In this document: positions 39,967 to 54,076 of the stretch, piece after piece
Position numbering within the stretch: position 1 is the first letter of the stretch
Layout: each line of letters starts with the position of its first letter
Assembly: GCA_023898665.1 (NCBI GenBank)
Contig: CP060233.1
Span: 18,801-82,800 of the forward strand
DNA: 64,000 bases
Direction: 5' to 3'
Source: Candidatus Nomurabacteria bacterium
Lineage (GTDB): Bacteria > Patescibacteriota > Saccharimonadia > Saccharimonadales > HK-STAS-PATE-42
Program-made: the position numbers and the translations under genes
Notes under the pieces: model-generated
The model's database searches: none
What the model saw: the letters and a program-made list of their open reading frames with translations, nothing else
Told to the model about the DNA's origin: nothing

Positions 39967-42861
39967 ATGAAGAAATATATACCGAAAGAAATAGAGCCAA
40001 AATGGCAGGACTGGTGGAAAGAGAATAAAACCTACACCGTTGATCTGAACAGTAAAAAGCCAAAATACATGGCTAGTGGCATGTTTAACTATCCGAGTGG
40101 TAGCGGGATCCATGTTGGTCATGCTTACACGTTTACCATACCTGATGTACTAGCTAGATTTAAAAGACAGCAAGGTTACGAAAGTCTAAACCCGGTAGGT
40201 TGGGATTCTTTTGGGCTTCCAGCCGAAAACTATGCAATTAAGATTGGTGTCTCACCTCAAGTCAGTATTCCTCAATGTATTGCTTACTACCAAAAACAAT
40301 ATACTGCGATGGGTTGGGGTGTTGACTGGGATAAAGAAATTGATTCATCTCAACCAATTTACTACAAATGGACCCAATGGATCTTTAGTGAGCTTTACAG
40401 AAACGGCTTAGTCTACCAAGACGTTAGAATGCAGTGGTGGTGTGATCAATGTCAAACTGTACTTGCTAATGAGCAAGTAGATCATAACGGAAAGTGTTGG
40501 AGGCATGATAAAGCCGACGACCCAGAGATTGAGAAAAAAGAAGTTAAACAGTGGTTCTTCAAAATAACAGAATATGCAGATGAATTACTTGAGGCAACTG
40601 ACGATCTAAATTGGACTAATGGAGTGAAGCTAGCCCAAAAGAACTGGATCGGTCGCAGCGTTGGTGCAGAAGTTAAATTCGGAGTCAAAGGTTCTTCCAA
40701 AGACATAACCGTATTCACTACTCGTCCAGATACTCTTTTTGGCGCAACTTTCATGGTGCTTGCTCCAGAACATGAACTTGCAAAAGAAATGGCTACCGAT
40801 GAATACAAAGAAGACGTAGAAGCATATATAAAACAAAGCTTAAGAAAGACCGAAGTAGAAAGACAGGCTTCAAAAGATAAGACTGGTGTATTTACCGGTG
40901 CTTATGCAATTAATCCTGTTAACAATGAGGAGATACCAATCTGGATTGCTGATTACGTATTAGGTGGCTATGGAACTGGCGCTATTATGTGCGTTCCTGC
41001 GCATGATGAAAGAGATAACGAGTTTGCAAAGAAGTTTAATCTTCCAATCGAACAAGTTGTGGCTACTACTTTTGTTGATAACACTAATCCACATATAAAA
41101 AATAGAGAAGTTGTCTCAAGGAATGTAGCAACTTGTATTGTGAAACATCCAACAGAAGAAAAATACCTAATAGCTAAGCCTGTAGGTGGAGCTAATTGGT
41201 CTCCAATTATGGGAGGGATTGATGATGAAGAGAATCCTATTGAAGCTGCTAAGAGAGAGCTAGTCGAAGAAACTGGCTATATTGATATAGACACCATAGA
41301 ACAATGTGGGGAGATATTCGCATCCGAATTCTTTGCTAAACACAAAGATGTAAATAGAATCGCCTACTGCTACCCCATACTTATTAAGCTTAAGTCTTTA
41401 GACCAAGATTTGAAGTCTGCGGTTGATGCTGAAGAACAAGAGGTTGAATGGGTTAGTCGTGATGAGTATATAAAACGGAGTTCATCGGGGGGTATGGTTG
41501 AGGTCTTAGAAATGTCTGAAGGAAGAATCATGGAAATGCCGAAAGAAGGCAGATTGATAAATTCTGGAGAGTTTAGTGGACTTACTACATCTGAGGCGCG
41601 GGAGAAGATTGTGGCTGATCTTGCTAAAAAAGGTGTTGCTGAAGAGAAGGTTAACTACAAGATGCGTGACTGGAGTGCCACTAGACAAAGATACTGGGGA
41701 GCTCCTACGCCAATTATCTACTGTCCAAGTTGTGGGCCAGTACTAGTGCCTGATAAGGATTTGCCAGTTGTATTACCAGAGCTTGATGATTTTAAGCCTA
41801 GCGGGGATGGCAGGAGCGCTCTTGCTCGGGCGACAGATTGGCTTAAGGTTAAGTGTCCTGAATGTGGTGAGGAAGCAGAAAGAGAGACTGATACTCTTGA
41901 TACTTTTATTGATAGTAGTTGGTATTTATACCGTTATCTTGACCATCAGAACGAGAATAAGATTTTTGAAAGTGCTCCGGCAAATAAATGGATGCCAATA
42001 GATTTTTATGATGGTGCTGACCATGCCACCGCTCACCTTCTTTACGCAAGATTCGTTGCTAGATTCTTTACTAAGATTGGTTTAGTAGATAATCCTGAGC
42101 CAATCAATCAAATGCTTTATCATGGGAAGATCCTAGCTGCGGATGGTACAAACTTTTCTAAATCTGCTGGTAATGGTGTTGATCCGTTAGAGGTTATTGA
42201 GAGTGGCTATGGGGCTGATGCTCTTAGAACATATTTGATGTTTGCCGCTCCTCCAGGTGAAGATATCCGCTGGAACCCACAAGGAGTGCCGGGAACTTTC
42301 AGATTCTTAACTAGGGTCTGGAACTTAGTTCAAGAATATGTAGATACTGATGATACTGAAGTTGAAGACAAAACCGTTAAAGAGATTAAGATCGCAAATA
42401 GTCAGATGGTCCGTAAGGTAACAAAAGATATTGAGAATGATCAAACTAATACTGCAATTGCCGCCATGATGGAGTATTTAAATACTTTGAATAGGGCTAA
42501 ATCAGGAGGTTTCGGAAAATCTGGAGTTTGGCAAGTTGCATTAGAATCTTTAGTTGCATGTTTAGCACCTTTTGCACCTCATGTTACAGAGGAGTTATGG
42601 CAAGATCTCGGTCATAGTACTTCGGTACATATTGATACTTGGCCGAAATGGGATGATGAATACTTAGTGGCTGATACTATCACAATTGCTGTACAGGTTA
42701 ATGGAAAAGTCAGAGCAGAAATTGAAGTTACTAAAGACGCTACTCAAGAAGAGGTCTTAAGCTTAGCAAAATCAAACGAAAAAGTTGCCGCTCATATAAA
42801 CGGCAAAGAGATCAAAAAAGAAATTTACGTACCAGGAAGACTAGTTAGTTTAGTGATTTAA
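39967..42861 (+). CDS. leuS: Leucyl-tRNA synthetase carrying an internal Nudix-domain insertion
   Basis: 964 aa. HIGH = HVGH (GIHVGHAYTF). CP1 editing domain (TTRPDTLFGATF ... GTGAIMCVPAHDERD). RDWSATRQRYWGAPTP block. KMSKS-like NFSKS. About 160 extra residues (nt 41065..41547) contain a perfect Nudix box. Confidence 0.95.
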   Translation: MKKYIPKEIEPKWQDWWKENKTYTVDLNSKKPKYMASGMFNYPSGSGIHVGHAYTFTIPDVLARFKRQQGYESLNPVGWDSFGLPAENYAIKIGVSPQVSIPQCIAYYQKQYTAMGWGVDWDKEIDSSQPIYYKWTQWIFSELYRNGLVYQDVRMQWWCDQCQTVLANEQVDHNGKCWRHDKADDPEIEKKEVKQWFFKITEYADELLEATDDLNWTNGVKLAQKNWIGRSVGAEVKFGVKGSSKDITVFTTRPDTLFGATFMVLAPEHELAKEMATDEYKEDVEAYIKQSLRKTEVERQASKDKTGVFTGAYAINPVNNEEIPIWIADYVLGGYGTGAIMCVPAHDERDNEFAKKFNLPIEQVVATTFVDNTNPHIKNREVVSRNVATCIVKHPTEEKYLIAKPVGGANWSPIMGGIDDEENPIEAAKRELVEETGYIDIDTIEQCGEIFASEFFAKHKDVNRIAYCYPILIKLKSLDQDLKSAVDAEEQEVEWVSRDEYIKRSSSGGMVEVLEMSEGRIMEMPKEGRLINSGEFSGLTTSEAREKIVADLAKKGVAEEKVNYKMRDWSATRQRYWGAPTPIIYCPSCGPVLVPDKDLPVVLPELDDFKPSGDGRSALARATDWLKVKCPECGEEAERETDTLDTFIDSSWYLYRYLDHQNENKIFESAPANKWMPIDFYDGADHATAHLLYARFVARFFTKIGLVDNPEPINQMLYHGKILAADGTNFSKSAGNGVDPLEVIESGYGADALRTYLMFAAPPGEDIRWNPQGVPGTFRFLTRVWNLVQEYVDTDDTEVEDKTVKEIKIANSQMVRKVTKDIENDQTNTAIAAMMEYLNTLNRAKSGGFGKSGVWQVALESLVACLAPFAPHVTEELWQDLGHSTSVHIDTWPKWDDEYLVADTITIAVQVNGKVRAEIEVTKDATQEEVLSLAKSNEKVAAHINGKEIKKEIYVPGRLVSLVI

Positions 42862-43148
42862 GCACCTTCTTGGGTAGTATCTATAAACCTTACATTACTA
42901 TAAAAGTCTGCATCTACAAATGGCTTAACGTGACTAATTTGCTCGAAGGGTGGTTTTTGCTCTCGAACCGCCTCAAATCTGTGTTGGGCATCGACTACTC
43001 CATCTTTTTTTGCACTTCTTGGGACTTTAATGGTAAGAATTGGGCCACTTGACACTCTACCTAAAGCGCTTATTGCTGAGTGATTAGCACGCATAGTTTT
43101 GAGGTCATGAGACTCACCGCCAAAACGCTTTGTAAAAAATGATGCCAT
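42858..43148 (-). CDS. Hypothetical protein
   Basis: 96-aa ORF filling the gap after leuS, with a 4-nt convergent overlap. No recognisable domain. Confidence 0.45.
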   Translation of the reverse strand: MASFFTKRFGGESHDLKTMRANHSAISALGRVSSGPILTIKVPRSAKKDGVVDAQHRFEAVREQKPPFEQISHVKPFVDADFYSNVRFIDTTQEGA

Positions 43149-43186
43149 AAACTGATATTTATAACTTAAGTATAAAAAGTAAAGAT

Positions 43187-43474
43187 TTATTCTGACTCGT
43201 TACCGCTTGTAGGGACACCACTTGGATTTGCCTTATCAGGGTTATAACCTTCTGGTTTAGTTTGGTCACCAGCTTTATCAATTTGCTCTTGAGTAGGACC
43301 AGAATTGATTCTATCAATTCCATAGTTAACACCCACAGCCAGGCCTATTACTACAGCAGCCCCAGCTATCGCAAGTTTAGCCGGGTTAACTCTAATTGGC
43401 TCAAACTCCATTGTCACCTCACCTGGTCTAGGTGTTGGGCGTGGTCCACGATTAGTTCTTGTATCTTGTCTCAT
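43187..43474 (-). CDS. Hypothetical single-pass membrane protein
   Basis: 95 aa. Basic N-terminus, TM helix LAIAGAAVVIGLAVGV, Pro/Gly-rich C-terminus. Confidence 0.5.
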   Translation of the reverse strand: MRQDTRTNRGPRPTPRPGEVTMEFEPIRVNPAKLAIAGAAVVIGLAVGVNYGIDRINSGPTQEQIDKAGDQTKPEGYNPDKANPSGVPTSGNESE

Positions 43475-43597
43475 AGTGTTATTACTTAATGTTTATTGTT
43501 TTTGTTTTGTCTAAACTTTTTTGTTTATGTTTAGTATCATAGCAAAGCATAGGCACAATGTCAAGTATTTAGACACAGATTAGTACATTTCTTGTGG

Positions 43598-43606
43598 TGG
43601 TATAAT
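43598..43606 (+). promoter_or_regulatory. Extended -10 box TGgTATAAT, 10 nt from the ATG of the VKOR gene
   Basis: gtggTGgTATAATagatcttaagATG. Confidence 0.5.
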
Positions 43607-43616
43607 AGATCTTAAG

Positions 43617-44366
43617 ATGAAAGTATTTAATAAAGAAGTAAATTTAGAAGCTGTCGCAGCTATTATTCCCCTATTGTTTACTTTTTTAACAGTTTTTCAT
43701 ACTAGAGAATCTGTTAAGGTTTTTTACGCTTTGGCATTAAATCTAGTGATTTTAGAATTCTTCTTAATTAGAAAAATTGCTGGTAAAAATTTTAAAAAAG
43801 CTTACCCATATATTTTAATCGTCTGTGGATCTATTGGTCTAGCAGCTGCAGGGATTTTGACAATTGAGAAGATAGCTCTTTTAAAAGATCCTGCCAGAAT
43901 AACAAGCTGCTCTTTGAGCCCAATAGTTGCATGTTCTCCAGTAATTAACAGCCCAGAAGCTAGTATTTTCACGATTCCTAATCCGGCATTTGGCATCTTA
44001 GGTTTTGGACTGGTTATTGCTGCTGGAATGGCTTTATTAGCTGGGGCTAATAGTTTGAAGAAGTGGTGGTGGCAAACATTCTTGTCAGGAACTCTCGTCG
44101 GGACAATATTTTGTGGATGGTTAATTTATGAGACTTTATATGAGATTGGATCAATCTGTCTTTACTGCTCAGGGGCTTGGGTCGTAACCATTGCCAGTTT
44201 TGTGACTACATTAAAATACGCGTCTAAAGAGAATGCGATAAAGCTTCCTACTAAGTTAAGGAATATGGTGGAAAAATACACACTAGAAATTATGGTCTCT
44301 ATATATGCTCTAATTCTCATCTTAATCCTTCAAAGGTTCTGGAGCTACTGGGTTTCTTTAATTTAA
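43617..44366 (+). CDS. Vitamin K epoxide reductase (VKOR) family membrane protein
   Basis: 249 aa, multi-TM. Loop cysteine pair CSLSPIVAC and active-site CxxC within a TM helix (ICLYCSGAW). Confidence 0.8.
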   Translation: MKVFNKEVNLEAVAAIIPLLFTFLTVFHTRESVKVFYALALNLVILEFFLIRKIAGKNFKKAYPYILIVCGSIGLAAAGILTIEKIALLKDPARITSCSLSPIVACSPVINSPEASIFTIPNPAFGILGFGLVIAAGMALLAGANSLKKWWWQTFLSGTLVGTIFCGWLIYETLYEIGSICLYCSGAWVVTIASFVTTLKYASKENAIKLPTKLRNMVEKYTLEIMVSIYALILILILQRFWSYWVSLI

Positions 44367-44395
44367 TTTAATTTTAAAAATAATTATAAAGAAGC

Positions 44396-44422
44396 ATTGG
44401 CACTCAAGACTTGGGAGTGCTA
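44396..44422. promoter_or_regulatory. CIRCE element (HrcA operator) upstream of dnaJ
   Basis: TTGGCACTC-aagacttgg-GAGTGCTAA has 1 mismatch to TTAGCACTC-N9-GAGTGCTAA. It overlaps the TGcTAAAAT -10 box (44417..44425). Confidence 0.75.
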
Positions 44423-44473
44423 AAATACTACTTGATATGTTAAAATCAAAAAATAGATTTTACAGATAAAAGT

Positions 44474-45592
44474 ATGGCTGAAAAAAGAGATTATTACGAA
44501 GTTTTAGGTGTTGGTAAAAACGCCTCTGCTGATGAGGTAAAAAAAGCTTTTAGAAAGCTAGCTGTTAAGTATCACCCTGATAAAGAAGGAGGAGATGAAA
44601 CTAAGTTTAAAGAAGCAGCTGAAGCTTATGAGGTACTGAGTAATACAGAGAAAAAGCAAAGGTATGATCAATTTGGACACGCTGGAGTTGGTGGAGCTAG
44701 CAGTTCGGGTGGAGGAGCAGGTTTTGGAGGCTTTGACTTTAGCGGAGCTGGAGGAGGATTTAGTTTCGATATCTCCGACCTTGGACTTGATGATATCTTA
44801 GGCAACTTCTTTGGCGGAGCTTTTGGAGGTGGCGGTGGGAGTAGACGAAAATCTCGAGGAGCAGACCTGCAGACGCTAATAACTCTAACTTTTGAAGAGG
44901 CTGTTTTTGGTACAGAGAAGAAGATGGATGTGACTACCGAACTTACCTGTGAACACTGTAAAGGCACAAAAAGTGAGCCAGGACATAAGCTAAAAAGTTG
45001 TCCAACTTGTGACGGCAAAGGTAGTCAAACTAAAACCTTTAGTACCCCATTTGGTCAGATTAACCAAGAAGAAGTTTGCCATACTTGTGGCGGTGAGGGT
45101 AAGATCCCGGATGTACCTTGTACGGTCTGTAACGGCAAGGGTAGAACTAAACAAACTGAAGAAGTTAAAGTGGTTATACCTCAAGGTGTTGATGACGGAG
45201 CTGCACTTAGAATATCCGGCAAAGGAGCTATGGGCGACGATGGTTCTCGTGGGGATTTATATGTCGAAATTAGAGTTAAGCCTCATAAAAAGTTTACCCG
45301 TGAGGGAAACTTAATTCTTTCTTCTGAAGAGATATCAATGGTTGATGCTGCTCTAGGTATAGAGATCGATGTTGAAACTGTTGATGGCAAAATTAAGATG
45401 AGAGTTCCGGCTGGTACACAAAGCGGGAATGACTTTAAACTTAGCGGACGAGGAGTGCCGTATGTTAGAGGCTCTGGTCGAGGAGATCATATTGTTACAA
45501 TTCGAGTTAAAACTCCAACTAACTTAAGTAAACACCAAAAAGAACTGCTCGAAGAATTCAAATCAGCAAAAAAACGAGGCTTATTTAGATAA
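44474..45592 (+). CDS. dnaJ: Molecular chaperone DnaJ
   Basis: 372 aa. J domain with HPD (KYHPDKEGG), a G/F-rich region, and four CxxCxGxG repeats ([32 protein letters not shown]). Confidence 0.97.
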
Positions 45593-45653
45593 GGCTTAAG
45601 TTTTTTATTTTAAAGTCTTAAAGGTATAATCCTCTACCAATGGAGATAAATGG

Positions 45654-46349
45654 ATGTCAGAGATAAAAACAAAACTATGGTTCGCTGGTGGACCAACCTG
45701 GAGGCCATCAGCTAAGTATAGTCCTAGGAGACAACATGAGATAATAGAGAGACTTTTTGGGGCTGCAAATTCTGAAGGTCCAATTGTATTACCAGATGGC
45801 TCTAATCTTTACATTGGATATAGAAATAATGGTAAACCAGGATACAGCAATGGACATAAACCAAAAGGGAAAGGAGATGGTTTTGCATTATTTACACCTT
45901 CAAAAGGCTCAGGTAACAGAAGAATTATGATTGACACCCAAAGAATTACAATAGGCGCTGATGGGTTGCCCGGAGAAACTTATGTTGGTTTTTTGCCCCA
46001 GGCTTTTAAGATGATTCTATTACTAGGAAGACATTCCTTAAAAGAAAGTGTAGCTGGGGAGAAGTTACCGTTTCGGCCGCTTTCAGGAGACATAAAAGAA
46101 GGCGCTAGATTGCTGACTGATACTGCTCTTTGGGACGCTATAAGTGGGGATCCAGATGGCAACCCTGAACTGTGGCTTCAAGATTTTTGGGAGAGCATGG
46201 AGAGAACCCTTGGCCCTAACCTCGCAGGATTAGAGTTTCCGGACGCTGAAAAACATAACCGCGGATTTGAACAGTTAGGCTTAGAGGAAAAACCATTTGA
46301 AAGGTTTACTGTAGATATGATTGGTAGAGTTGCAGAAATAATGCGCTAA
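45654..46349 (+). CDS. Hypothetical protein (G/P/W/R-rich, atypical composition)
   Basis: 231-aa ORF with a TATAAT (45625..45630) and GGAG (45641..45644) upstream. No recognisable domain. Confidence 0.55.
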   Translation: MSEIKTKLWFAGGPTWRPSAKYSPRRQHEIIERLFGAANSEGPIVLPDGSNLYIGYRNNGKPGYSNGHKPKGKGDGFALFTPSKGSGNRRIMIDTQRITIGADGLPGETYVGFLPQAFKMILLLGRHSLKESVAGEKLPFRPLSGDIKEGARLLTDTALWDAISGDPDGNPELWLQDFWESMERTLGPNLAGLEFPDAEKHNRGFEQLGLEEKPFERFTVDMIGRVAEIMR

Positions 46350-46353
46350 GATT

Positions 46354-46383
46354 TTGACTCTTTGACCATTAATGTATTATAAT
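46354..46383 (+). promoter_or_regulatory. Promoter TTGACT-N18-TATAAT, -10 box 7 nt from the ATG of 46391..46912 (leaderless-type)
   Basis: TTGACTctttgaccattaatgtatTATAATaatagatATG. Confidence 0.5.
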
Positions 46384-46390
46384 AATAGAT

Positions 46391-46912
46391 ATGAGTGAGG
46401 TAAATAGAGTGAATGCACCAGGAGTGTGTAAGATATGTCCTTCTAGGGGACTGTGTGTTGGGAGTGTTATTCTAGAAACTAATGAGGTTGCAAGAACGAA
46501 TTCTGGACGAAGCTTCTGGGATCCTGCTTTCTCATCCATAGGAAAAGCCATAGAAATGATTGATAGGATAGGAAAAACGTCTCTTTTAGCAGAGATATAC
46601 CATGAAAACGTAAGGGTTAAACCACACAATTCAGGTAGGTCCTGGCGGAGAAAAGGCAAAGTTAAAGAAGTACCGCCCTATGAGACAGTATTCGAACCCT
46701 TTGAATACCCCCAAGACTACCCTTTGGTGATAGTCTCAGACGAGGCGGCAAAAGGTATTTTTCATAATGGAGCGGCAGTATTAAGTGAGCTAGCAGATAG
46801 AGCTGGTGAATGCGGAGGCCCAATAAGAGGTAAATGCGGAGCATTTGATCCTTCAGTTATAGATATCATTGCTACTAATCTCTCAAGCGCGGAAGAATCA
46901 GATTTAGAGTAA
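46391..46912 (+). CDS. Hypothetical protein with an N-terminal Cys cluster and an acidic C-terminus ending in Glu
   Basis: 173 aa. CKICPSRGLCV near the N-terminus, CGGPIRGKC near the C-terminus, tail ...SSAEESDLE. It lies immediately upstream of the ATP-grasp array. Confidence 0.55.
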   Translation: MSEVNRVNAPGVCKICPSRGLCVGSVILETNEVARTNSGRSFWDPAFSSIGKAIEMIDRIGKTSLLAEIYHENVRVKPHNSGRSWRRKGKVKEVPPYETVFEPFEYPQDYPLVIVSDEAAKGIFHNGAAVLSELADRAGECGGPIRGKCGAFDPSVIDIIATNLSSAEESDLE

Positions 46913-46920
46913 TTCAATCA

Positions 46921-46950
46921 TTGACTCTATACCCCTCTATATGCTAGAAT
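46921..46950 (+). promoter_or_regulatory. Promoter TTGACT-N18-TGcTAGAAT, -10 box 7 nt from the ATG of the first ATP-grasp gene (leaderless-type)
   Basis: TTGACTctatacccctctataTGcTAGAATaatagacATG. Confidence 0.55.
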
Positions 46951-46957
46951 AATAGAC

Positions 46958-47890
46958 ATGATAAGCGGTGGTAAAAAATCAAACAATAAACAAGTTCTGG
47001 TGCTTTTCCCTTTTAAGAGGGATAGGCGTCTAGATTTTGCTGGATTCGTAAAGAGCGTAAATAAGTATGCTGGGAACGACAATCTTGCAGTTCAAGGGTC
47101 TCTAAAAAACTTAATCTTCGAGATAAAAGACTCTAAATTAAAGATTACTGAGACAATGAGTAGTCGTGATATTCGTGATTTTAAAGCTATTTATGTACGA
47201 AGGCTAAAGAGTAAGACCCAAGAGAAAGTTACAGCTGTAGCAATTGCTGCAGATGCGTGGGGTATTGAGGTCATTAATTCTGAAAATACCAACTTGCAGA
47301 GCTTCTCTAAGTTAACTGAGCTAGTAGCACTAAGTATAAAAGGTTTACCGGTTCCCGATACTATCATTGCAGCACGACCAGAAGTAAAAAAGTTATTAAA
47401 AGAAAAAAAGTGGTGGCTGCCCTTCCCTCTTATTATGAAGGGTGCTAATGCAAGTGTAGGTGGCCATAACTTTTTAGTAAAAGATAAAAAAGAACTTAAA
47501 AAAATTTTAAATAGAGATGAGTACAAAGATACGATTTTTATATATCAGCAAATGGTTCCTAACGATGGAGACTATAGATTCTTAATTACTGGTGATAAAG
47601 TTGGAGTAGTTATTCATCGAAGTGCAGTTGAAGGTGACCATAGAAACAACACATCGCTTGGGGCAAAAGCTAAGTTAATACCTACTAATGACTTAAGTAG
47701 AAAAATGAAGCGAGACGCAGTAAATGCGGCTAAAGCTCTACACAGAGAGCTATGTGGAGTTGATATTTTAGTCGATAAAGAAACTGGCAAGCACTACATC
47801 TTAGAAGTAAATAAAAAAACTATGCTTGATGAAGGTACTTACATACCCCAAAAGATGAAAGCTGTTAGCAAGTTCTTTGAGGAGTTATAG
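46958..47890 (+). CDS. RimK-like ATP-grasp ligase, paralogue A
   Basis: 310 aa. ATP-grasp blocks PLIMKGANASVGGHNFLV, QQMVPNDGDYRFLITGDKV, GDHRNNTSLGAKA, LCGVDILVDKETGKHYILEVN. Confidence 0.75.
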   Translation: MISGGKKSNNKQVLVLFPFKRDRRLDFAGFVKSVNKYAGNDNLAVQGSLKNLIFEIKDSKLKITETMSSRDIRDFKAIYVRRLKSKTQEKVTAVAIAADAWGIEVINSENTNLQSFSKLTELVALSIKGLPVPDTIIAARPEVKKLLKEKKWWLPFPLIMKGANASVGGHNFLVKDKKELKKILNRDEYKDTIFIYQQMVPNDGDYRFLITGDKVGVVIHRSAVEGDHRNNTSLGAKAKLIPTNDLSRKMKRDAVNAAKALHRELCGVDILVDKETGKHYILEVNKKTMLDEGTYIPQKMKAVSKFFEEL

Positions 47891-47893
47891 CTT

Positions 47894-49285
47894 ATGAAAA
47901 ATGTTTTAATTTTATTTGGAGTTAAGCCTAAAAATCTTACAGAAAGAAACTGGGAGAGTTTTTCTAGTTTAATAAAAGAGAATTTAGATAATGAGCACAT
48001 TAAGCTTACTACTTCTGCTCTTAGTAAGTTAACTTATTACGTAAATGGAGAAGAATCTAAAGTTTTTATAAGAGAAACCAATAAGGATATTGCTGAGTTT
48101 GATTTAGTAGTTTTTGTTTATACTGGTACTAAAAGAGAATATGCTATTGCAGCTGCTCGATACTTAGAGTTTAAGAATATCCCCTTTATTGATAGGTACT
48201 TAAAACGAGCAGTGCCCTCTGGAAAGCTAGCTTGCGCTATGCAAAGAAGCTTAAAAGAAGTGGATATAGTCCCAACTTTAGGAGCAACCTCTGGTAACGG
48301 CTTATTAAACTCTCTCAAGTATTTTAATAAGTTTAATGACTTTCCTCTTGTCTTAAAAGCAGATATTGGTAGAAAAGGACAGAATAACTTTTTAGTTAAG
48401 TCTAAAGATGATTTAAGAGAAATATTAAGTAAGAATAAAGATGTTAACTTCGTATTACAACCTTATGTTGAAAATGATGGTGATTACAGGTTTTTAGTTA
48501 TGGGCTCAGAAGTTAGACTGGCCTTTAAGCGCTCCGGTGACAAGTCTAAAACTCATCTAAATAATACTTCGAGCGGAGCAAATGTTAACAAAATAGATTT
48601 AGAAAAAGTTTCAAAAGAGGTACTAAGTTTAGTAAAACGTGCTGCTGCGGTTGATAGACTCAGTGTAGCAGGAGTTGATCTAATTGAAGATAAAACTACT
48701 GGCAGGTGGATGGTTTTAGAGGTAAATATAAGCCCACAACTTATTACTGGTGAGTTTGCTAAAGAGAAGACTGAAGCATATGCAGAAATGATTAGAGAAT
48801 TGCTAGAGAAGAAATCTTATAAACCAAACAAAACAGGTTTGATAGACTTGGAAGAAGCTCAAAAAGTTGGGCGTAGAGAGTATATTGGTATTTTTGAATC
48901 TGGTGAAGTTATACGAGCTAAAGTTGATAGTGGTGCTTATTACTGCTCATTGCATGTAGGCTCAGTGGAGTTAAAAGACTCTAAACTTAAAGTTGTTTTT
49001 GATAATGGAGTTGAGAGAGAGTTTGATAAGTTTAGAAAAATCGAAGTCTCTCCTACTGGTGGCCATAGAGAAAAACGCTTTGTTGTACCGCTTGAGATTT
49101 TAATGGGGGATAAAATAATTAAGGAAGAGATAAGCTTAAGCAGTAGAACTGGATTGAGAAATAAATTTTTACTAGGTAGGAGAATATTAAAACATGGTAA
49201 CTATTTAATTGATTCCTCGAGGAGTTTTTATTTTGGAAAAGACAAAGAAGAGATTAAAATAAAGTTAAAAGAAAGGAGCAAGTAG
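47894..49285 (+). CDS. RimK-like ATP-grasp ligase, paralogue B, fused to a C-terminal retropepsin-like (RimB / 'ATP-dependent zinc protease' PF05618-like) domain
   Basis: 463 aa. ATP-grasp blocks PLVLKADIGRKGQNNFLV, QPYVENDGDYRFLVMGSEV, KTHLNNTSSGANV, VAGVDLIEDKTTGRWMVLEVN. The C-terminal approximately 130 aa carry RAKVDSGAYYCSLHV (D-S-G-A aspartic-protease-like motif). Confidence 0.75.
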   Translation: MKNVLILFGVKPKNLTERNWESFSSLIKENLDNEHIKLTTSALSKLTYYVNGEESKVFIRETNKDIAEFDLVVFVYTGTKREYAIAAARYLEFKNIPFIDRYLKRAVPSGKLACAMQRSLKEVDIVPTLGATSGNGLLNSLKYFNKFNDFPLVLKADIGRKGQNNFLVKSKDDLREILSKNKDVNFVLQPYVENDGDYRFLVMGSEVRLAFKRSGDKSKTHLNNTSSGANVNKIDLEKVSKEVLSLVKRAAAVDRLSVAGVDLIEDKTTGRWMVLEVNISPQLITGEFAKEKTEAYAEMIRELLEKKSYKPNKTGLIDLEEAQKVGRREYIGIFESGEVIRAKVDSGAYYCSLHVGSVELKDSKLKVVFDNGVEREFDKFRKIEVSPTGGHREKRFVVPLEILMGDKIIKEEISLSSRTGLRNKFLLGRRILKHGNYLIDSSRSFYFGKDKEEIKIKLKERSK

Positions 49286-49288
49286 CAT

Positions 49289-50188
49289 ATGAAGATTCTG
49301 ATTTTAGGTGGTGCAAGCTACACAAATAAAAGGCTAAGAGAAGCTGCTCGAGAGCGCGGTCACATTTGCCATATCAAAAGCTATAAAAACTGCTACCTTT
49401 CTGTTGAGTCTGGAGAAACTAAAATATTTTATAAAGGTAAAGAGTTAACCGGATATGATGCGGTAATCCCGCGTATTGCTCAAAGTTATACAAAGTACGG
49501 GACAGCTGTTTTAAGGCAGTTTGAGATGAAGGGAACTTATGTGGCGGCGTCATCTCTTGCAATAAATAGAAGCAGAAATAAGCTTAGGAGTATGCAACTT
49601 TTGGCTAAAGCAAACATTGGAGTTCCCAAAACGATTATTGCGAACTCCGATTCTGATACTGATGATATTTTGGATGCGTTTGGTAAAGGGCCTTATATTG
49701 TTAAAACTTTAAGAGGAACTCATGGGAAGGGAGTGGTCTTGGCAGAGACTAAAAAAGCTGCTAAAGCGGTGATGCAAGCTTTTTATGTTGAGAATGTTAA
49801 CTTTATGGTGCAGGAATTTATCGAAGAAAGTGCCGGGACCGACATCCGTGTTCTGGTGATCGGCGGAAGGATTTATGCCAGTATTAAAAGGCAGTCATTG
49901 GATGATGAGTTCAGAAGTAATACTCACTTAGGCGCCGAAGGTCGTAAAGTTAAGCTTACAGAAGAAGAAAAGAAGGCCGCAAAAAAAGCTGCTAAAGTTA
50001 TGGGTCTACCCATTTGTGGAGTTGATATGATGCGTTCTAATCGCGGGCCGTTAATCTTAGAAGTTAATAGTTCAGCTAGCATAATGACTCCAGAAAAAAT
50101 TACGGGAAAAGATATTGCTACTAAAATCATCAAATATGTCGAAAATAATGCTAAACGAGGTCAAAAGAAAGACCGTGTAGGAGCATAA
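49289..50188 (+). CDS. rimK: Ribosomal protein S6--L-glutamate ligase (canonical RimK)
   Basis: 299 aa, collinear with E. coli RimK as I remember it: MKILIL...KRLREAARERGH, DAVIPRI, YGTAVLRQFEMKG, RNKLRSMQLLA, GKGVVLAET, VQEFIEESAGTDIRVLVIGG, EFRSNTHLGA, ICGVDMMRSNRGPLILEVNSS. Confidence 0.88.
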   Translation: MKILILGGASYTNKRLREAARERGHICHIKSYKNCYLSVESGETKIFYKGKELTGYDAVIPRIAQSYTKYGTAVLRQFEMKGTYVAASSLAINRSRNKLRSMQLLAKANIGVPKTIIANSDSDTDDILDAFGKGPYIVKTLRGTHGKGVVLAETKKAAKAVMQAFYVENVNFMVQEFIEESAGTDIRVLVIGGRIYASIKRQSLDDEFRSNTHLGAEGRKVKLTEEEKKAAKKAAKVMGLPICGVDMMRSNRGPLILEVNSSASIMTPEKITGKDIATKIIKYVENNAKRGQKKDRVGA

Positions 50189-50191
50189 AAG

Positions 50192-50452
50192 ATGTCTTGC
50201 CACCCTTTAAGGAGATCGACTGATCAAAAAGTAATCTTACATGCTAGAGCAGAAGATCACCCGCCAGATAAAGTTGAGCTCGAGCAAAGAGTTGCAGCGC
50301 CACGAGTCCATGATAGACTCAGCCCACATGGCTCAGTTCGATTACCTAGTGGTGCTATAGTGCCAGCGACATGTCTTTCTGAGTTTATTGGGGATCAATT
50401 TGTAAGAGCGGGAGCAGAACTAGACCCAGAGAATGTCAAATTCAGTGATTAG
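50192..50452 (+). CDS. Hypothetical small protein (P/R/H-rich, more GC-rich than neighbours)
   Basis: 86-aa ORF starting 3 nt after the rimK stop and overlapping the next gene by 20 nt. No recognisable domain. That it is coding is only inferred from its tight operon fit. Confidence 0.4.
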   Translation: MSCHPLRRSTDQKVILHARAEDHPPDKVELEQRVAAPRVHDRLSPHGSVRLPSGAIVPATCLSEFIGDQFVRAGAELDPENVKFSD

Positions 50453-50984
50453 TAATTCTAAATTGATAATAGGTGATAGTAACTCTTTTTTTATTAAGCT
50501 TAAAGGCTTTGAGAATCTGTCAGTTCCTGGGTATAGAGTTAATGAAGTTTTAGATAAGCTTAAAGAATTAGATACTGGTGAAACACTAATTATTGGGGCT
50601 GGGGTAAACGACACTGCAATTATAAAAGATATTAATGATGGCAATGAAATAAACCCAGATATAGACGATTTTAAGAACACTTACAGAGAATTATTAAGCT
50701 TAGCAAAAAGAAAGTTTAAGAAGGTTATAGTTTTAGGCTTGCTAACTTCTACTGAAGAAAAGGTTAAACTCAATGGTGCAGAGATCCAATACCAAAATGA
50801 GGTAATCGTTAAGTACAATAAGTTAGTTAAAGAACTCTGTGGTAAGAATAATATTGAATTTGTTGATCTTCTTCCCTATTTTACTGGTAGAGAAGATGAA
50901 TTATTGGTTGACCACATTCATCCTAATGAAGATGGCAAAGAGATTATTTTATCTTGCCTGAGAGGTAGACTGTACGCCAAGTAA
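50433..50984 (+). CDS. SGNH/GDSL-family hydrolase
   Basis: 183 aa. Block I IIGDSNS, block III GAGVNDT, block V DHIHPN. Confidence 0.8.
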   Translation: MSNSVISNSKLIIGDSNSFFIKLKGFENLSVPGYRVNEVLDKLKELDTGETLIIGAGVNDTAIIKDINDGNEINPDIDDFKNTYRELLSLAKRKFKKVIVLGLLTSTEEKVKLNGAEIQYQNEVIVKYNKLVKELCGKNNIEFVDLLPYFTGREDELLVDHIHPNEDGKEIILSCLRGRLYAK

Positions 50985-51714
50985 GCCAAACCCAAAACAT
51001 AGTTAAATAATGTCCGAAGTATCTATTGGTTTTAACTTTAAGATAAGTATTGCTAGACTTAAGGTTTGTTATAACTTTCTCAGATTGTCTTGGAACTATC
51101 ACCAAATCTGATTTACTATAAGTTATTCTAAGCTTTGTACTTTTGGCAAAATCTAAGTTATTAATTAAATCCACTCTACTCCACTCTTTTTGTATCTGCA
51201 TAAGAGAGAAGCCCTGTTCTTCGTAACAATCTTTAAGATTCTGAGTTCTTGAGCCAAGCCAAAGCGCAGTAGAAAGTTCAGCTCCAGGACAAACAAAATC
51301 TACAAACTTAAGATTAGCGCTTTTTATTCTGTTGGCCGCGTAAGCCGCAACCCCGGTTCCTACGCTTAATCCAACGATATTAATTTCTTTGTAATTATTC
51401 TCGTTTAGAATTTGTTGGACTCTTTTTGTGGCTTCTTCACAAACTCTAATGCACTGCTCTTTGGTTTGAATCGGATCTTTAAGCAAAAGAGATCTAGGTG
51501 ATATAGAATATGTATCCCTACTTTTTGGGACTTGCTTCATGATCCATCTTTGCATTACATCCCCAGATTGCCACGGTACAAACAAAAAAGTTGCTTTAGT
51601 ATTATTAAGCTTAATTCTCTTTATTACTTTTATAGAATCTTTTGCATTGGTCGGCTTATCAAAATCTGACTTCGCCAAAAACTTTTCTAAAAAGATATCC
51701 ACCTTAAGCTTCAT
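50944..51714 (-). CDS. Alpha/beta-fold hydrolase (esterase-like)
   Basis: 256 aa. Nucleophile elbow GLSVG (NIVGLSVGTGVAAYAA). C-terminal His candidate in YFGHY. Starts 6 nt after the alaS stop, and its 3' end overlaps the SGNH gene by 41 nt. Confidence 0.65.
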   Translation of the reverse strand: MKLKVDIFLEKFLAKSDFDKPTNAKDSIKVIKRIKLNNTKATFLFVPWQSGDVMQRWIMKQVPKSRDTYSISPRSLLLKDPIQTKEQCIRVCEEATKRVQQILNENNYKEINIVGLSVGTGVAAYAANRIKSANLKFVDFVCPGAELSTALWLGSRTQNLKDCYEEQGFSLMQIQKEWSRVDLINNLDFAKSTKLRITYSKSDLVIVPRQSEKVITNLKSSNTYLKVKTNRYFGHYLTMFWVWLTWRTVYLSGKIK

Positions 51715-51720
51715 AGGTAT

Positions 51721-53610
51721 CTATACTAATGCGGCTTTTATGCGGCGGATTCCGACGGATGAGGATTCTTCTTTTAGGATTTTAAACTTTTTGCCTTCTT
51801 CGCTTAATTTTCCGGTATGCTTAACATGCGGACCTCCGCAAATCTCGCGTGAGTAATTCTCACCATCTGGATCTCCAACTGTATACACTTTAACCATCTC
51901 GCCATACTTATCCCCAAATGCCCCCATTACTCCAGAATCTAGAGCTTCTTTGGTATTTTCTTCGCGCCATGTCATTGGCCAATCTTTTTGGATCTGCTCA
52001 TTGACCATATCTTCAACTGCCTTGATTTGCTCTGGAGTCATTTTTTCTGGATGTGAGAAATCAAATCTTAATCTTTCTGGGGTTATATTAGATCCTCTTT
52101 GGATGACATGATCTCCTAAGATATTTCTGAGGGCTCTATGCATAAGATGAGTTGCAGTATGGTACTTAACAACAATATCAGAGTGGTCTTGAAGACCTCC
52201 TTTAAACTGACCGGCAGTTGCAGTGCGAGAGCGCTCGCGCTGTTCTTGCATAGAGATCTCGTATTCGTCACGCCATTTATCATTAAGCTTGTAACCGCGC
52301 AGTGCGCACTCCTCTACTGTTAATTCTTGTGGGAATCCGTAAGTATCGTAAAGCTTAAAGACATCTGCTCCGCTTAGAGAATGTTGTCTTGCAACCTTCT
52401 CAAGTTCTTTTAAGCCCTTTTGGAGAGTTTGCCTAAAGACTCTTTCTTCTTTTTCTAAAGTGGTTAGAGTATTGTCAAAGTTAGCTATAACTTCTTTATA
52501 ATCTTCTCCGTAGATTTCTCTAACAACAGGAGCAAGCTGTGATACTAGATTCTGTGATATGCCTAAATCTAGTGCAAACTTAACTGCTCTTCTTACTAAT
52601 CTTCTTAGGACGTAGCCTTGACCTGTGTTACTCGGCAAGACTCCATCGGTTGCCAACCAAACGGCAGATTTTATGTGGTCGGTTACTACTCTAAAAGCTT
52701 TGGTGTTTTCTTCATACCTTTTGCCAGTGATTAATTCAATCTGATCATTAATTGGTTTAGCAAGATCTGTTGCGGATATATCTGGGACTCCTAGTGATGC
52801 CATAGCTAAACGCTCCAGGCCTGCGCCCTGGTCAATATTTGGAGCTTTAAGCTTAACAAACTCAGATTCGCTCTCACGCTTGTAGCCCATAAATACATTG
52901 TTGCCAATTTCTGTAAATCTTGGACTTTTGCCGGCAGGATGAGCCTTGCCATACTTGATCTCATCTTCATACTCCTCTCCAAAATCAAAGAACATCTCAG
53001 AGCAAGGACCGCAAGGATCTCCAATTGGAGTGTTGAGCTCTGGTATTCCTCTGCCCCACCAATTCTCCTTACCTTCATATAAGAATATTCTTCCATCCTC
53101 AATACCTCGCCTATTACCCTCTTCCTCTGTTAAGAGTTCGATAACCTTGGCATCGATTCCTCTTTTCTTGAACTCTTCTTGCCACAGGTTAATAGCCTCA
53201 TCATCTCTTGGAATGCCTAGACTCTCATTACCAGCGTAACAAGTTACATATACCTTATTGATATCAAGCCCAATAACATCAAATAAGAATTCGCAAATCC
53301 ATGGAATCTGCTCCGCTTTAAAATAATCACCAAAGCTCCAGTTTCCTAGCATTTCAAAGCTAGTTAAGTGCTCGCTGTCCCCTACATCATCAATATCAAC
53401 AGCTCGGAAGACGACCTGAGAGTCAGAGATTCTCTTTTGGCCATTGGGATATGGTTCCCCCAAGAGATATGGAACCATTGGCTGCATACCAGATCCAGTA
53501 AATAAAGTTGTTGGATCATCTTGTGGCACTAAAGAAGCTCTCGGAACAATTAGATGTCCTCTTTCTTCAAAAAATTTTAGATAAGCTCTGCGGATTTCCC
53601 TTGCTGTCAT
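51721..53610 (-). CDS. alaS: Alanyl-tRNA synthetase, short form lacking the C-terminal C-Ala domain
   Basis: 629 aa. Class II AlaRS N-terminus (IRRAYLKFFEERGH, FTGSGMQPMVPYL) and editing-domain ligands HTATHLMHRAL and CGGPHV. It ends ...VGIRRIKAALV, where full-length bacterial AlaRS continues for about 200 more aa. Confidence 0.92.
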   Translation of the reverse strand: MTAREIRRAYLKFFEERGHLIVPRASLVPQDDPTTLFTGSGMQPMVPYLLGEPYPNGQKRISDSQVVFRAVDIDDVGDSEHLTSFEMLGNWSFGDYFKAEQIPWICEFLFDVIGLDINKVYVTCYAGNESLGIPRDDEAINLWQEEFKKRGIDAKVIELLTEEEGNRRGIEDGRIFLYEGKENWWGRGIPELNTPIGDPCGPCSEMFFDFGEEYEDEIKYGKAHPAGKSPRFTEIGNNVFMGYKRESESEFVKLKAPNIDQGAGLERLAMASLGVPDISATDLAKPINDQIELITGKRYEENTKAFRVVTDHIKSAVWLATDGVLPSNTGQGYVLRRLVRRAVKFALDLGISQNLVSQLAPVVREIYGEDYKEVIANFDNTLTTLEKEERVFRQTLQKGLKELEKVARQHSLSGADVFKLYDTYGFPQELTVEECALRGYKLNDKWRDEYEISMQEQRERSRTATAGQFKGGLQDHSDIVVKYHTATHLMHRALRNILGDHVIQRGSNITPERLRFDFSHPEKMTPEQIKAVEDMVNEQIQKDWPMTWREENTKEALDSGVMGAFGDKYGEMVKVYTVGDPDGENYSREICGGPHVKHTGKLSEEGKKFKILKEESSSVGIRRIKAALV

Positions 53611-53618
53611 TATTACAC

Positions 53619-53627
53619 ATTATAACA
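53619..53627 (-). promoter_or_regulatory. Extended -10 box TGtTATAAT, 8 nt from the alaS ATG
   Basis: The minus strand reads ctcTGtTATAATgtgtaataATG. Confidence 0.5.
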
Positions 53628-53647
53628 GAGCTAGGGGAAGATTTGAA

Positions 53648-54076
53648 TTGACCGTAAAGATCAAAGAGTTGTATTTTTTAAGAGTGAACTCTACTCATCA
53701 ACTTAATGGCTTTGGCACTAGTGCTAGAAATGCATCTAGTCAATTTAATATAGTTTGTATAGCCGAGCACGGAACTACAATTGTGCGTGCAGTCGAGATT
53801 TCTAGTGATGCTAGATTTGTTAGCATTCCCAATAAGACTCAAACTGAGTTAGGTCACTCTGCTTGCATTTTAATGACCTGTCCAGGTTGTGGTAGTAAAG
53901 AAATTAAAATAAGCCCAGCGGAAGTTGAGTACCTAGCAACTGTAGCCGGGTTCAGGATAATTACTACACCAGAGACATTTGGGCTAAAGCTTGGCAATCC
54001 TATTGATACTGATGAAATCATAGGAGTTGTTGGGTCAATCTCTGATTTAGAAAACATAGAACCCTTTATGGATTGA
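53648..54076 (+). CDS. Hypothetical CPxC protein, paralogue 1 (start codon uncertain; the track start is TTG)
   Basis: 142 aa. ..ILMTCPGCGSKEI.. then ..GNPIDTDEIIGVVGSISDLE. Resembles the next ORF. Confidence 0.45.
   Translation: MTVKIKELYFLRVNSTHQLNGFGTSARNASSQFNIVCIAEHGTTIVRAVEISSDARFVSIPNKTQTELGHSACILMTCPGCGSKEIKISPAEVEYLATVAGFRIITTPETFGLKLGNPIDTDEIIGVVGSISDLENIEPFMD

Follow-up and report, generated by a model that had tools for sequence, protein, structure and literature searches.

To our knowledge, the RimK/RimB pair is the only well-studied system in which rewriting of ribosomal-protein tails reprograms translation; so far, it has been recorded as an accessory system scattered among Proteobacteria. 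The ligases LysX and ArgX, for their part, have a dedicated small carrier protein as their substrate and modify its C-terminal Glu. RimK glutamylates the ribosomal protein S6 (RpsF), and RimB trims the resulting poly-Glu and stimulates RimK (PMC11957791, PMC10092738, PMC12239564); free glutamate is also polymerised by RimK under stimulation by RimB (PMC11957791). A RimB-RimK hybrid (RimBK), proteolytically active, was reported in 2025 from Desulfotalea psychrophila (DP2392) and from Flavobacteriales/Rhodobacterales (PMC11957791). The Rlo operon of Pseudomonas aeruginosa comprises rloA, encoding a secreted retropepsin, rloB, encoding an inactive transglutaminase with seven transmembrane segments, and rloC, encoding an ATP-grasp protein (PMC12239564). 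A related array of three ATP-grasp genes was found in a stretch of 64,000 nucleotides (nt) of contig CP060233.1, hereafter called the window. It encodes ligase A, ligase B with a retropepsin-like peptidase domain at its C-terminus, and a RimK (K), and it is flanked by three less conserved open reading frames (ORFs) named u231, u173 and s86 (Table 1).

The array is a lineage-specific expansion of the known RimB/RimK system. It is best read as a system that builds and trims amino-acid tails, as had been proposed from the DNA letters alone (the sequence-only reading), and more specifically as an expanded Rim module for modification of the S6 tail, conserved across Saccharibacteria-type bacteria of the candidate phyla radiation (CPR). 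This more specific reading is given a probability of about 0.55.

RimK and the conservation of the array

The protein K has both a Rimk_N (PF18030, 1.5e-30) and a RimK (PF08443, 5e-56) domain. Its residues 3–288 are collinear with residues 5–290 of E. coli RimK (5zct/4iwx, 284 bits), which bears out the sequence-only reading in calling it canonical, and its score on the rimK_fam profile (237.5 bits) is above the cutoff of 143.4. For comparison of the pockets, 161 ligases (75 from the RimK family, 24 from the A family and 62 from the B family) were mapped onto RimK numbering. Residues R64, K100, R102, K141, E182, R189, R211, H215, D248, E260 and N262 were found to be conserved in all 75 RimK-family members, including K, with the R216 position being variable. 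R64, R189 and N262 contact bound poly-Glu, and R211 and H215 are situated in the substrate loop of RimK (PMC10092738).

RimK is the most conserved gene of the neighbourhood, with 86–98% identity among relatives compared with 79–88% for DnaJ, 72–74% for AlaRS, ~76% for A, 45–79% for B and 28–35% for u231. A pattern scan for the B family, using one genome per GTDB species, gave 286 confirmed stretches, nearly all from genomes with the label Saccharibacteria/Saccharimonadia, Nanosynbacter and Nanosyncoccus among them. ORFs were then called and classified in 83 Saccharibacteria/CPR loci (locus names begin with L), and the ligase subfamilies were assigned by average linkage; single-linkage clustering failed to separate them. 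RimK was present in 73 of these loci, the PF05618 peptidase domain in 70, the B family in 62 and the A family in 24. The commonest layout was that of the window, i.e., A followed by the B-peptidase fusion and RimK (20 exact cases and three variants). Other layouts were the B-peptidase fusion and RimK with no A (11 loci), free B, free peptidase and RimK (seven loci, with five more having an extra antisense ligase), B followed by the B-peptidase fusion and RimK (three loci), the peptidase at the N-terminus of another ligase subfamily, the F-type (four loci), and the peptidase fused to RimK itself (two loci, L048 and L067). The RimBK order of peptidase, Rimk_N and RimK was also seen in the distant matches P0053 and P0054.

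Fusions only 27–28% identical to B still lie in triplets of an A-like ligase, a B-peptidase fusion and RimK, and the array is old, conserved and lineage-wide. Conservation of the gene neighbourhood, which the sequence-only reading had named as a check, was found in part: the triplet is kept down to 27% identity of B, but its clustering with the flanking ORFs is not conserved. As the module is kept throughout the lineage in small genomes, and as RimK is more conserved than either DnaJ or AlaRS, it is probably important for the physiology of Saccharibacteria-type bacteria. An elaborated version of Rim is, in effect, retained across an epibiotic lineage with genomes of ~0.6–1 Mb, the human oral Nanosynbacter included.

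Two observations concern the surveyed genomes themselves. In rumen and oral genomes of the Nanosyncoccus type, ligases of two further subfamilies, D (plus strand) and E (minus strand), are convergent and lie next to RimK and a free peptidase (L058, L060, L061, L065, L070, L072-L075, L077, L080, L082, and L083), with some of these loci having no RimK within 8 kb. The source metagenome-assembled genome of the window is labelled 'Candidatus Nomurabacteria' by NCBI; judged by B, RimK and synteny, however, nearly all of its closest relatives carry the label Saccharibacteria/Saccharimonadia, and the NCBI label is probably unreliable.

S6 and free poly-glutamate as candidate targets

On sequence evidence, S6 is the most likely target of the array, ahead of the neighbouring orphan proteins, given (i) the Glu-Glu tails of S6, (ii) the linkage to rpsF in three genomes and (iii) the very strong conservation of RimK. 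Sixteen of 21 related S6 proteins were found to end in EE. In L013 (1500–9464), rpsF lies 3.2 kb from a cluster of A, B, a Mur-like ligase and RimK, and the S6 it encodes ends in ...KAKEE. The order in L087 (10001–16389), all on one strand, is rpsF-ssb-rpsR-dnaJ, a gene for a 391-amino-acid (aa) protein, A, the B-peptidase fusion and RimK, and that in L085 (10001–14664) is rpsF-ssb-rpsR-dnaJ-MATCAP-RimB-RimK. In all three genomes, rpsF-ssb-rpsR-dnaJ leads directly into the ligase/peptidase cluster. DnaJ was also considered as a substrate and was rejected, its C-terminus being basic and not Glu-terminated.

A number of observations weigh against S6 tail modification. The linkage to rpsF is limited to L013, L085 and L087, rpsF lies within 8 kb in only one of 84 B-anchored loci, and many S6-anchored loci have no adjacent ligase. 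In a large oral/gut clade of Saccharibacteria (L090-L106, metagenome loci) S6 ends in ...TRESASAE, with a single terminal Glu; no ligase cluster was seen within 8 kb of rpsF in these loci. The S6 of the source genome was not among 26 protein matches seeded with the L013 S6, and none of the 80 loci from a metagenome scan with an S6 alignment was on the contig of the window. K itself scores just below the cutoff of the S6--Glu ligase equivalog NF007764 (316 vs. 331 bits) and has deletions of S7 and R8, which contact poly-Glu in Pseudomonas RimK. The published RimBK hybrid gave no S6 glutamylation in vitro (PMC11957791), which means that ligases of the Rim type can have other targets. The Mur-like ligase of some relatives, described below, would fit polymer synthesis as well as branching of a tail. 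A tblastn search of the window gave no match to S6, SSB, S18, HrcA, GrpE or GreA of E. coli or Saccharibacteria.

The slot between dnaJ and the ligases, which in the window holds u231 and u173, was found elsewhere to contain MATCAP-family metallocarboxypeptidases (seven loci), a Mur-like ligase (seven loci), a YheC/D-type ATP-grasp protein and HExxH proteins. No recurrent acidic tail was detected among the C-termini of all dnaJ-to-ligase proteins of 40 loci. The MATCAP-family homologues (PF08014/DUF1704, 'QEGLA') lie directly upstream of a B-type ligase or of a RimB-RimK pair, examples being L002 (4238–5623), L085 (12058–13275), L012, L026, L030, L033, L054 and L064. The eukaryotic relatives of these homologues cleave the terminal Tyr from the -EEY tail of tubulin. 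The Mur-like protein (L013, 7264–8556; L024, L025, L028, L034, L008 and L066) stands alone within the cluster and is nearest to the cyanophycin-synthetase M domain, which adds side chains, with 161 bits over profile positions 481–856 compared with 92 bits for MurE. Together with the ATP-grasp ligases, it makes up a split set resembling cyanophycin synthetase.

This last finding bears on a different possibility, namely that the product is a free peptide based on poly-alpha-glutamate, perhaps with cyanophycin-like decoration, which would be stored as a source of amino acids or nitrogen, act as an osmolyte or be secreted, in organisms unable to make amino acids. The peptidase would then mobilise or size the polymer and S6 would be incidental. 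The CphA-M-like ligase inside the cluster in seven related loci agrees with this, as do the highly variable ligase content between genomes and the polymerisation of free glutamate by RimK under stimulation by RimB (PMC11957791). However, a Mur-like ligase is missing from the window, genes for export, storage granules or a cyanophycinase-like enzyme were not found, and the MATCAP-type enzymes of the relatives belong with carboxypeptidases of protein C-termini. The 86–98% identity of RimK, the EE tails of S6 and the rpsF linkage are also a better fit to a ribosomal target, and a free polymer is considered unlikely.

Divergent ligases, fused peptidase and flanking reading frames

Ligases A and B were found to be paralogues (38% identity over 156 aa, E 1e-25). 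They have in common the motifs already picked out in the sequence-only reading, which are NDGDYRFLI (A 202–210) or NDGDYRFLV (B 194–202) and HRNNTSLGA (A 228–236) or HLNNTSSGA (B 221–229). Pfam gave no Rimk_N match in either protein, with only the RimK ATP-grasp domain being present apart from the peptidase domain of B. Their best profile is rimK_fam (A 109 and B 80.9 bits, both under the cutoff of 143.4), and LysX (A 91.9 and B 48.8 bits, cutoff 275.6) and MptN (61–62 bits, cutoff 350) are also among the best. Scores were lower for CofF (32 bits, cutoff 300), GshB (27–33 bits), Ddl (24.5 bits), graspetide maturases of the MvdC/SAV_5884 type (20–21 bits, cutoffs 350–425) and cyanophycin synthetase (17–19 bits). 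The nearest PDB chains of A are RimK, ArgX and LysX (E 1e-8 to 1e-4). An AlphaFold2 (AF2) model of B, with a predicted local distance difference test score (pLDDT) of 84.7, has two domains joined by a disordered linker; in a Foldseek search of the PDB it retrieved RimK, ArgX and LysX first, then synapsin, D-Ala-D-Ala ligase and glutathione synthetase. Matches of B to the TTL family were weak. By their profile and fold neighbours, A and B would thus sit in the clade of RimK, ArgX and LysX, which modifies protein C-termini. A grouping with well-characterised small-molecule enzymes, which would have spoken against tail building, was not seen, as RimK, LysX, ArgX and MptN all rank ahead of Ddl, GshB, the graspetide maturases and cyanophycin synthetase.

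It is conceivable that A and B extend a metabolite, a cofactor or a cell-wall precursor, in the manner of MptN (methanopterin) and CofF (F420), and merely share an operon with RimK. Their scores on these two profiles point in that direction but are far under the cutoffs, the repeated covalent joining of B and a protease speaks for a substrate that is a peptide or protein, and the associated accessory genes encode peptidases. Moreover, Saccharibacteria have a minimal biosynthetic metabolism. Even with the repeated switching of the superfamily between protein and cofactor acceptors, as described in a part of PMC11957791 that cites Li et al. (2003), a small-molecule substrate is held to be improbable.

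In the pocket comparison, K100, K141, D187, R189, N213, D248, E260 and N262 are kept across the RimK, A and B families. The RimK-invariant residues R102, E182, R211, S212 and H215 are replaced in the A and B families by a small residue, N, L, N and S, respectively, with R211 being kept in six of 24 A proteins, including the A of the window. Within the B family (21 members), the invariant ligase residues are K155, D197, R199, H221-L-N-N224, D262, E276 and N278. As every ATP/Mg catalytic residue is retained, A and B are predicted to be active. By their sequences, they are a distinct subfamily with a common, less basic predicted pocket; as the RimK pocket residues are replaced, their substrate probably differs from that of RimK, either in the incoming residue or in the acceptor carboxylate.

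The C-terminal domain of B, which had been called retropepsin-like from the letters alone, matches PF05618 over residues 325–446 (2.3e-13, 50.7 bits against a cutoff of 27). The sequence RAKVDSGAYYCSLHV is present at B 341–355, and the D-S/T-G-A motif aligns with that of the homologous solved chains 9g59, 9g58 and 2pma. In B the motifs are D345-S-G-A and L426-L-G-R-R, and D345, G347, A348, R395, R418 and L426-x-G428-R429 are invariant in 21 B-family sequences. The conserved R395, R418 and R429 would be compatible with an acidic substrate. All equivalog scores are under the cutoff (RimB 39.6/200, RloA3 47.7/210, RloA2 30.8/250 and RloA1 25.1/280 bits). B is 100% identical to a database protein annotated as 'ATP-dependent zinc protease', a label that is corrected here for the fusion protein. 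At the level of sequence, the active sites of all four catalytic domains of the array are intact. Because the peptidase has repeatedly been fused to, and separated from, different ligases, the layouts provide a Rosetta-stone sign which indicates that it would work physically with both ligase types.

On the basis of these features, the following mechanism is proposed for an S6-directed module. A, B with its peptidase, RimK and, in the clade of the window, s86 would be expressed from one leaderless, translationally coupled transcript. RimK, by its family membership, would add alpha-linked Glu to the Glu-Glu C-terminus of S6 and may also polymerise free glutamate. The peptidase domain of B, by homology, would cut poly-Glu as RimB/RloA do, set the length of the tail and modulate the ligases. 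A and B would attach some residue that is not the usual alpha-Glu, or use a different carboxylate of the same acidic tail, and their role would be capping, branching or initiation and not a duplication of that of RimK. In relatives, the MATCAP-like and CphA-M-like enzymes would be alternative tail editors.

A more far-reaching version, which is speculative and judged unlikely, is that the S6 tail carries a 'tail code' comparable to that of tubulin: RimK would elongate a poly-Glu tail starting at -EE, A and B, with pockets devoid of the basic residues of RimK, would cap or branch it with a different residue, the retropepsin would trim it and the MATCAP- or CphA-M-like enzymes would edit it elsewhere. 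If true, translation in these bacteria, in which transcriptional regulators are nearly absent, would be tuned by the state of the S6 tail. The system lends itself to direct tests: S6 is small and well defined as a substrate, Saccharibacteria are available in culture, and the proteins are easily co-expressed in E. coli.

The features of the locus are given in Table 1. ORF calling confirmed all six ORFs at the positions first reported, including the three ATP-grasp genes and their spacing, with spacers of exactly 3 nt between A and B (CTT), B and K (CAT), and K and s86 (AAG).

Table 1. Features of the array and its flanks (positions are those of the window).
Feature	Position	Strand	Remarks
u231, 231-aa ORF between dnaJ and the ligases	45654..46349	+	
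Promoter-like site TTGACT-18-TATAAT, 11/12	46354..46383	+	ends 7 nt before u173 ATG
u173, 173-aa orphan ORF	46391..46912	+	
Promoter-like site TTGACT-18-TAGAAT with upstream TG, 10/12	46921..46950	+	ends 7 nt before ligase A ATG
Ligase A, 310 aa, RimK-superfamily ATP-grasp, Saccharibacteria-specific subfamily	46958..47890	+	PF08443 9e-20
Ligase B (whole), 463 aa, ligase with C-terminal PF05618 domain	47894..49285	+	
B ligase domain, residues 1–308, paralogue of A	47894..48817	+	PF08443 5e-16
B interdomain linker, residues 309–318	48818..48847	+	pLDDT <50 in AF2 model; length varies in B-family alignment
B retropepsin-like (RimB/RloA-type, PF05618) peptidase domain, residues 319–463	48848..49285	+	predicted catalytic Asp345, codon 48926–48928
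RimK (K), 299 aa, canonical poly-alpha-L-glutamate / S6 C-terminal glutamate ligase (by family)	49289..50188	+	Rimk_N + RimK domains
s86, 86-aa P/R/H-rich protein	50192..50452	+	ORFs at same position in L001, L003

Shine-Dalgarno-like sites precede B (GAGGAG), K (AAGGAG) and s86 (TAGGAG). Ligase A has none, and none is found between the upstream promoter-like site and the ATG of u173. The sequence-only reading had placed a strong leaderless-type promoter in front of A. The 10/12 site and the lack of a Shine-Dalgarno sequence were both recovered; the strength of the claim was not, since promoter-like matches in the region (19) are not in excess of those in shuffled sequence (17.8 ± 4.4), and the site remains a pattern match and not proof of function. 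With a promoter-like site 7 nt ahead of an ATG that has no Shine-Dalgarno sequence, the arrangement suggests a leaderless first gene, A, followed by translationally coupled B, K and s86. The triplet is probably co-transcribed.

The flanking ORFs had been described as compositionally atypical orphans, which was found to apply to them unequally. For composition it holds for s86, with P+R+H at 24% against a background of 11% and a GC content of 0.46. The GC contents of u231 and u173 (0.42–0.43) are inside the range of the long genes of the window (0.317–0.432), and the GC content at third codon positions is ordinary for all three. A foreign or mobile origin of the array was rejected, since it keeps its syntenic neighbours (dnaJ, alaS, and the GDSL and hydrolase genes). 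As for orphan status, this holds for u173, for which an exhaustive HMMER search of 1.84 billion representative proteins returned only itself, but not for u231 and s86, which have homologues in the closest relatives.

A segment of ~560 bp containing u173 is absent from the closest relatives L001, L003 and L005, including genomes whose B is 78–79% identical. The codon score of u173 (0.144) is ~1.6 standard deviations under the gene mean, yet is best in the annotated frame, and the protein has two Cys-rich stretches. Its place in the system is doubtful, and it may be an insertion peculiar to this lineage. The u231 protein is 28–36% identical to syntenic ORFs in L001, L003 and L005 and has a typical codon-usage score (0.305 vs. 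0.299 ± 0.094). It gave no Pfam or NCBIfam match, a word search of 5.8 billion proteins returned only itself, and its single-sequence AF2 model (pLDDT 36.9) is unusable. A relationship to the ~350-aa proteins that precede ligase A elsewhere was rejected (hhalign probability 0.06%). It is fast-evolving, with its position kept only in the closest relatives, and probably not a core part. The s86 protein is 46–59% identical to its positional counterparts in L001 and L003, and the core conserved among them reads RRSTD..V.L.ARA...L.P.G.VRLP.G..V.AT...LDP..V.F. It has no Pfam or NCBIfam family match and no counterpart in L005, L006 or any more distant locus surveyed. Both u231 and s86 are real genes, and s86 is probably translationally coupled to rimK.

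The sequence-only reading had favoured local ORFs as the substrates on which tails are built and trimmed, in place of S6. Indeed, u173 has an acidic tail (...SSAEESDLE), the sole acidic Glu-ending tail of any ORF near the array, s86 is probably coupled to rimK and is kept in two close relatives, u231 adjoins ligase A in four genomes, and LysX and ArgX, to which A and B are close in fold, act on a dedicated small carrier. Against this, u173 has no homologue and is missing from close genomes, u231 and s86 do not extend beyond the immediate clade, whereas the triplet is kept down to 27% identity, and the C-termini of u231 and s86 are neither conserved nor acidic. The slot elsewhere holds ATP-grasp, Mur-like, MATCAP-like and HExxH proteins, and no LysW-like zinc-ribbon carrier is present at the locus of the window. 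The proposal is accordingly held to be very improbable, and u231, u173 and s86 are best read as clade-specific passengers or accessories, not substrates.

Further observations were made on the surrounding genes. Directly 3' of rimK, 50 loci (e.g., L010, 7437–7925) have a gene for a multi-pass membrane protein of ~165 aa which is absent from the window, and in 22 loci a gene for a DUF192 (PF02643) protein, anchored in the membrane by its N-terminus, comes before it. The clade of the window has s86 and GDSL-hydrolase genes in its place. An extra protein of 168–215 aa, with H-x-D ... H-like motifs, no Pfam match and no counterpart in the window, is encoded between rimK and the s86/GDSL genes in L003 (9321–9827), L005 (169 aa) and L006 (10790–11437). 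The upstream order in the window is leuS-VKOR-dnaJ. The window LeuRS (39967–42861, plus strand, 964 aa) has a NUDIX domain (PF00293, 1.1e-12; residues 389–501, ~41131–41469) inserted directly after the editing domain; the insert is also found in the L001 orthologue (979 aa) and is absent from that of L003 (822 aa). The AlaRS (51721–53610, minus strand) is short at 629 aa, with no more than a catalytic core and an SAD domain; the C-terminal extension usually seen is missing.

Comparison with described systems

Cyanophycin synthetase (CphA1) is approached only in some relatives, where ATP-grasp ligases and the stand-alone M-domain-like ligase (161 bits) occur in split form. The window differs in having no Mur-like gene and no cyanophycinase, and its ligases are of the RimK type and not of the CphA G-domain type. 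A conserved short precursor ORF of the graspetide type is not present at the locus.

In fold and sequence, LysX and ArgX of the LysW system are among the proteins nearest to A and B, and the substrate loop of LysX, like that of A and B, probably departs from the N-T-x-x-G-G loop of RimK. However, the equivalog scores are far under the cutoff, no lysine or arginine biosynthesis genes are nearby, and no LysW-like small zinc-ribbon carrier with an acidic Glu tail was found next to the array.

The tubulin tail code (TTL, TTLL, CCP, and MATCAP/vasohibin) resembles the array by analogy only. Both would involve an acidic -EE tail, more than one specificity class of ATP-grasp ligase and a peptidase that trims poly-Glu, and to these may be added the MATCAP-family (PF08014) proteins directly upstream of the ligases in seven related loci and the weak TTL matches to B. 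The components are non-orthologous save for the distant MATCAP match, and the target would be a ribosomal protein.

In the Rlo operon, as in the window, a PF05618 peptidase is paired with a divergent RimK-like ATP-grasp protein, and the best peptidase profile score of B is to RloA3 (47.7 bits). All Rlo profile scores are nevertheless far under the cutoff. The peptidase of B, being the C-terminal part of a cytoplasmic ligase, has no signal peptide, and no RloB-like gene was found among the ORFs of 42000–54000 or in related loci.

The RimBK hybrid likewise joins a RimB-type peptidase and a RimK-superfamily ligase in one polypeptide, and true RimBK also occurs in Saccharibacteria (L048 and L067). 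Its existence (PMC11957791) means that a ligase-protease fusion, which the sequence-only reading had not recognised as described, is no longer new in itself. What sets B apart is the opposite order, with the ligase (1–308) preceding the peptidase (319–463), which is N-terminal in RimBK. The ligase of RimBK is canonical (Rimk_N + RimK), whereas that of B has no Rimk_N, scores under the rimK_fam cutoff and has R102, E182, R211 and H215 replaced. In addition, the window encodes a separate canonical RimK 3 nt downstream of B.

The closest likeness is to RimK/RimB itself (rimABK of Pseudomonas; RimK of E. coli), in that a canonical RimK adjoins a PF05618 peptidase with D-S/T-G-A, the S6 proteins of the clade end in Glu-Glu, and ligase and peptidase would be functionally coupled. 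The array differs in that the window has no RimA (EAL) regulator, the peptidase is fused to a non-canonical ligase, a third ligase is present, and the cluster follows rpsF-ssb-rpsR-dnaJ in some relatives. It is conserved in ultra-small CPR genomes, in contrast with the patchy accessory of Proteobacteria. A literature search (Saccharibacteria/Patescibacteria with RimK/ATP-grasp, and MATCAP with ATP-grasp), which did not cover Iyer et al. (2009), gave nothing relevant. Compared with the described systems, the apparently undescribed features are therefore (i) the reverse-order fusion on a non-canonical ligase, (ii) the A and B subfamilies with their common predicted pocket, two uncharacterised ligase subfamilies being thereby brought to light, (iii) the conserved Saccharibacteria triplet and (iv) its association with MATCAP-like and CphA-M-like genes.

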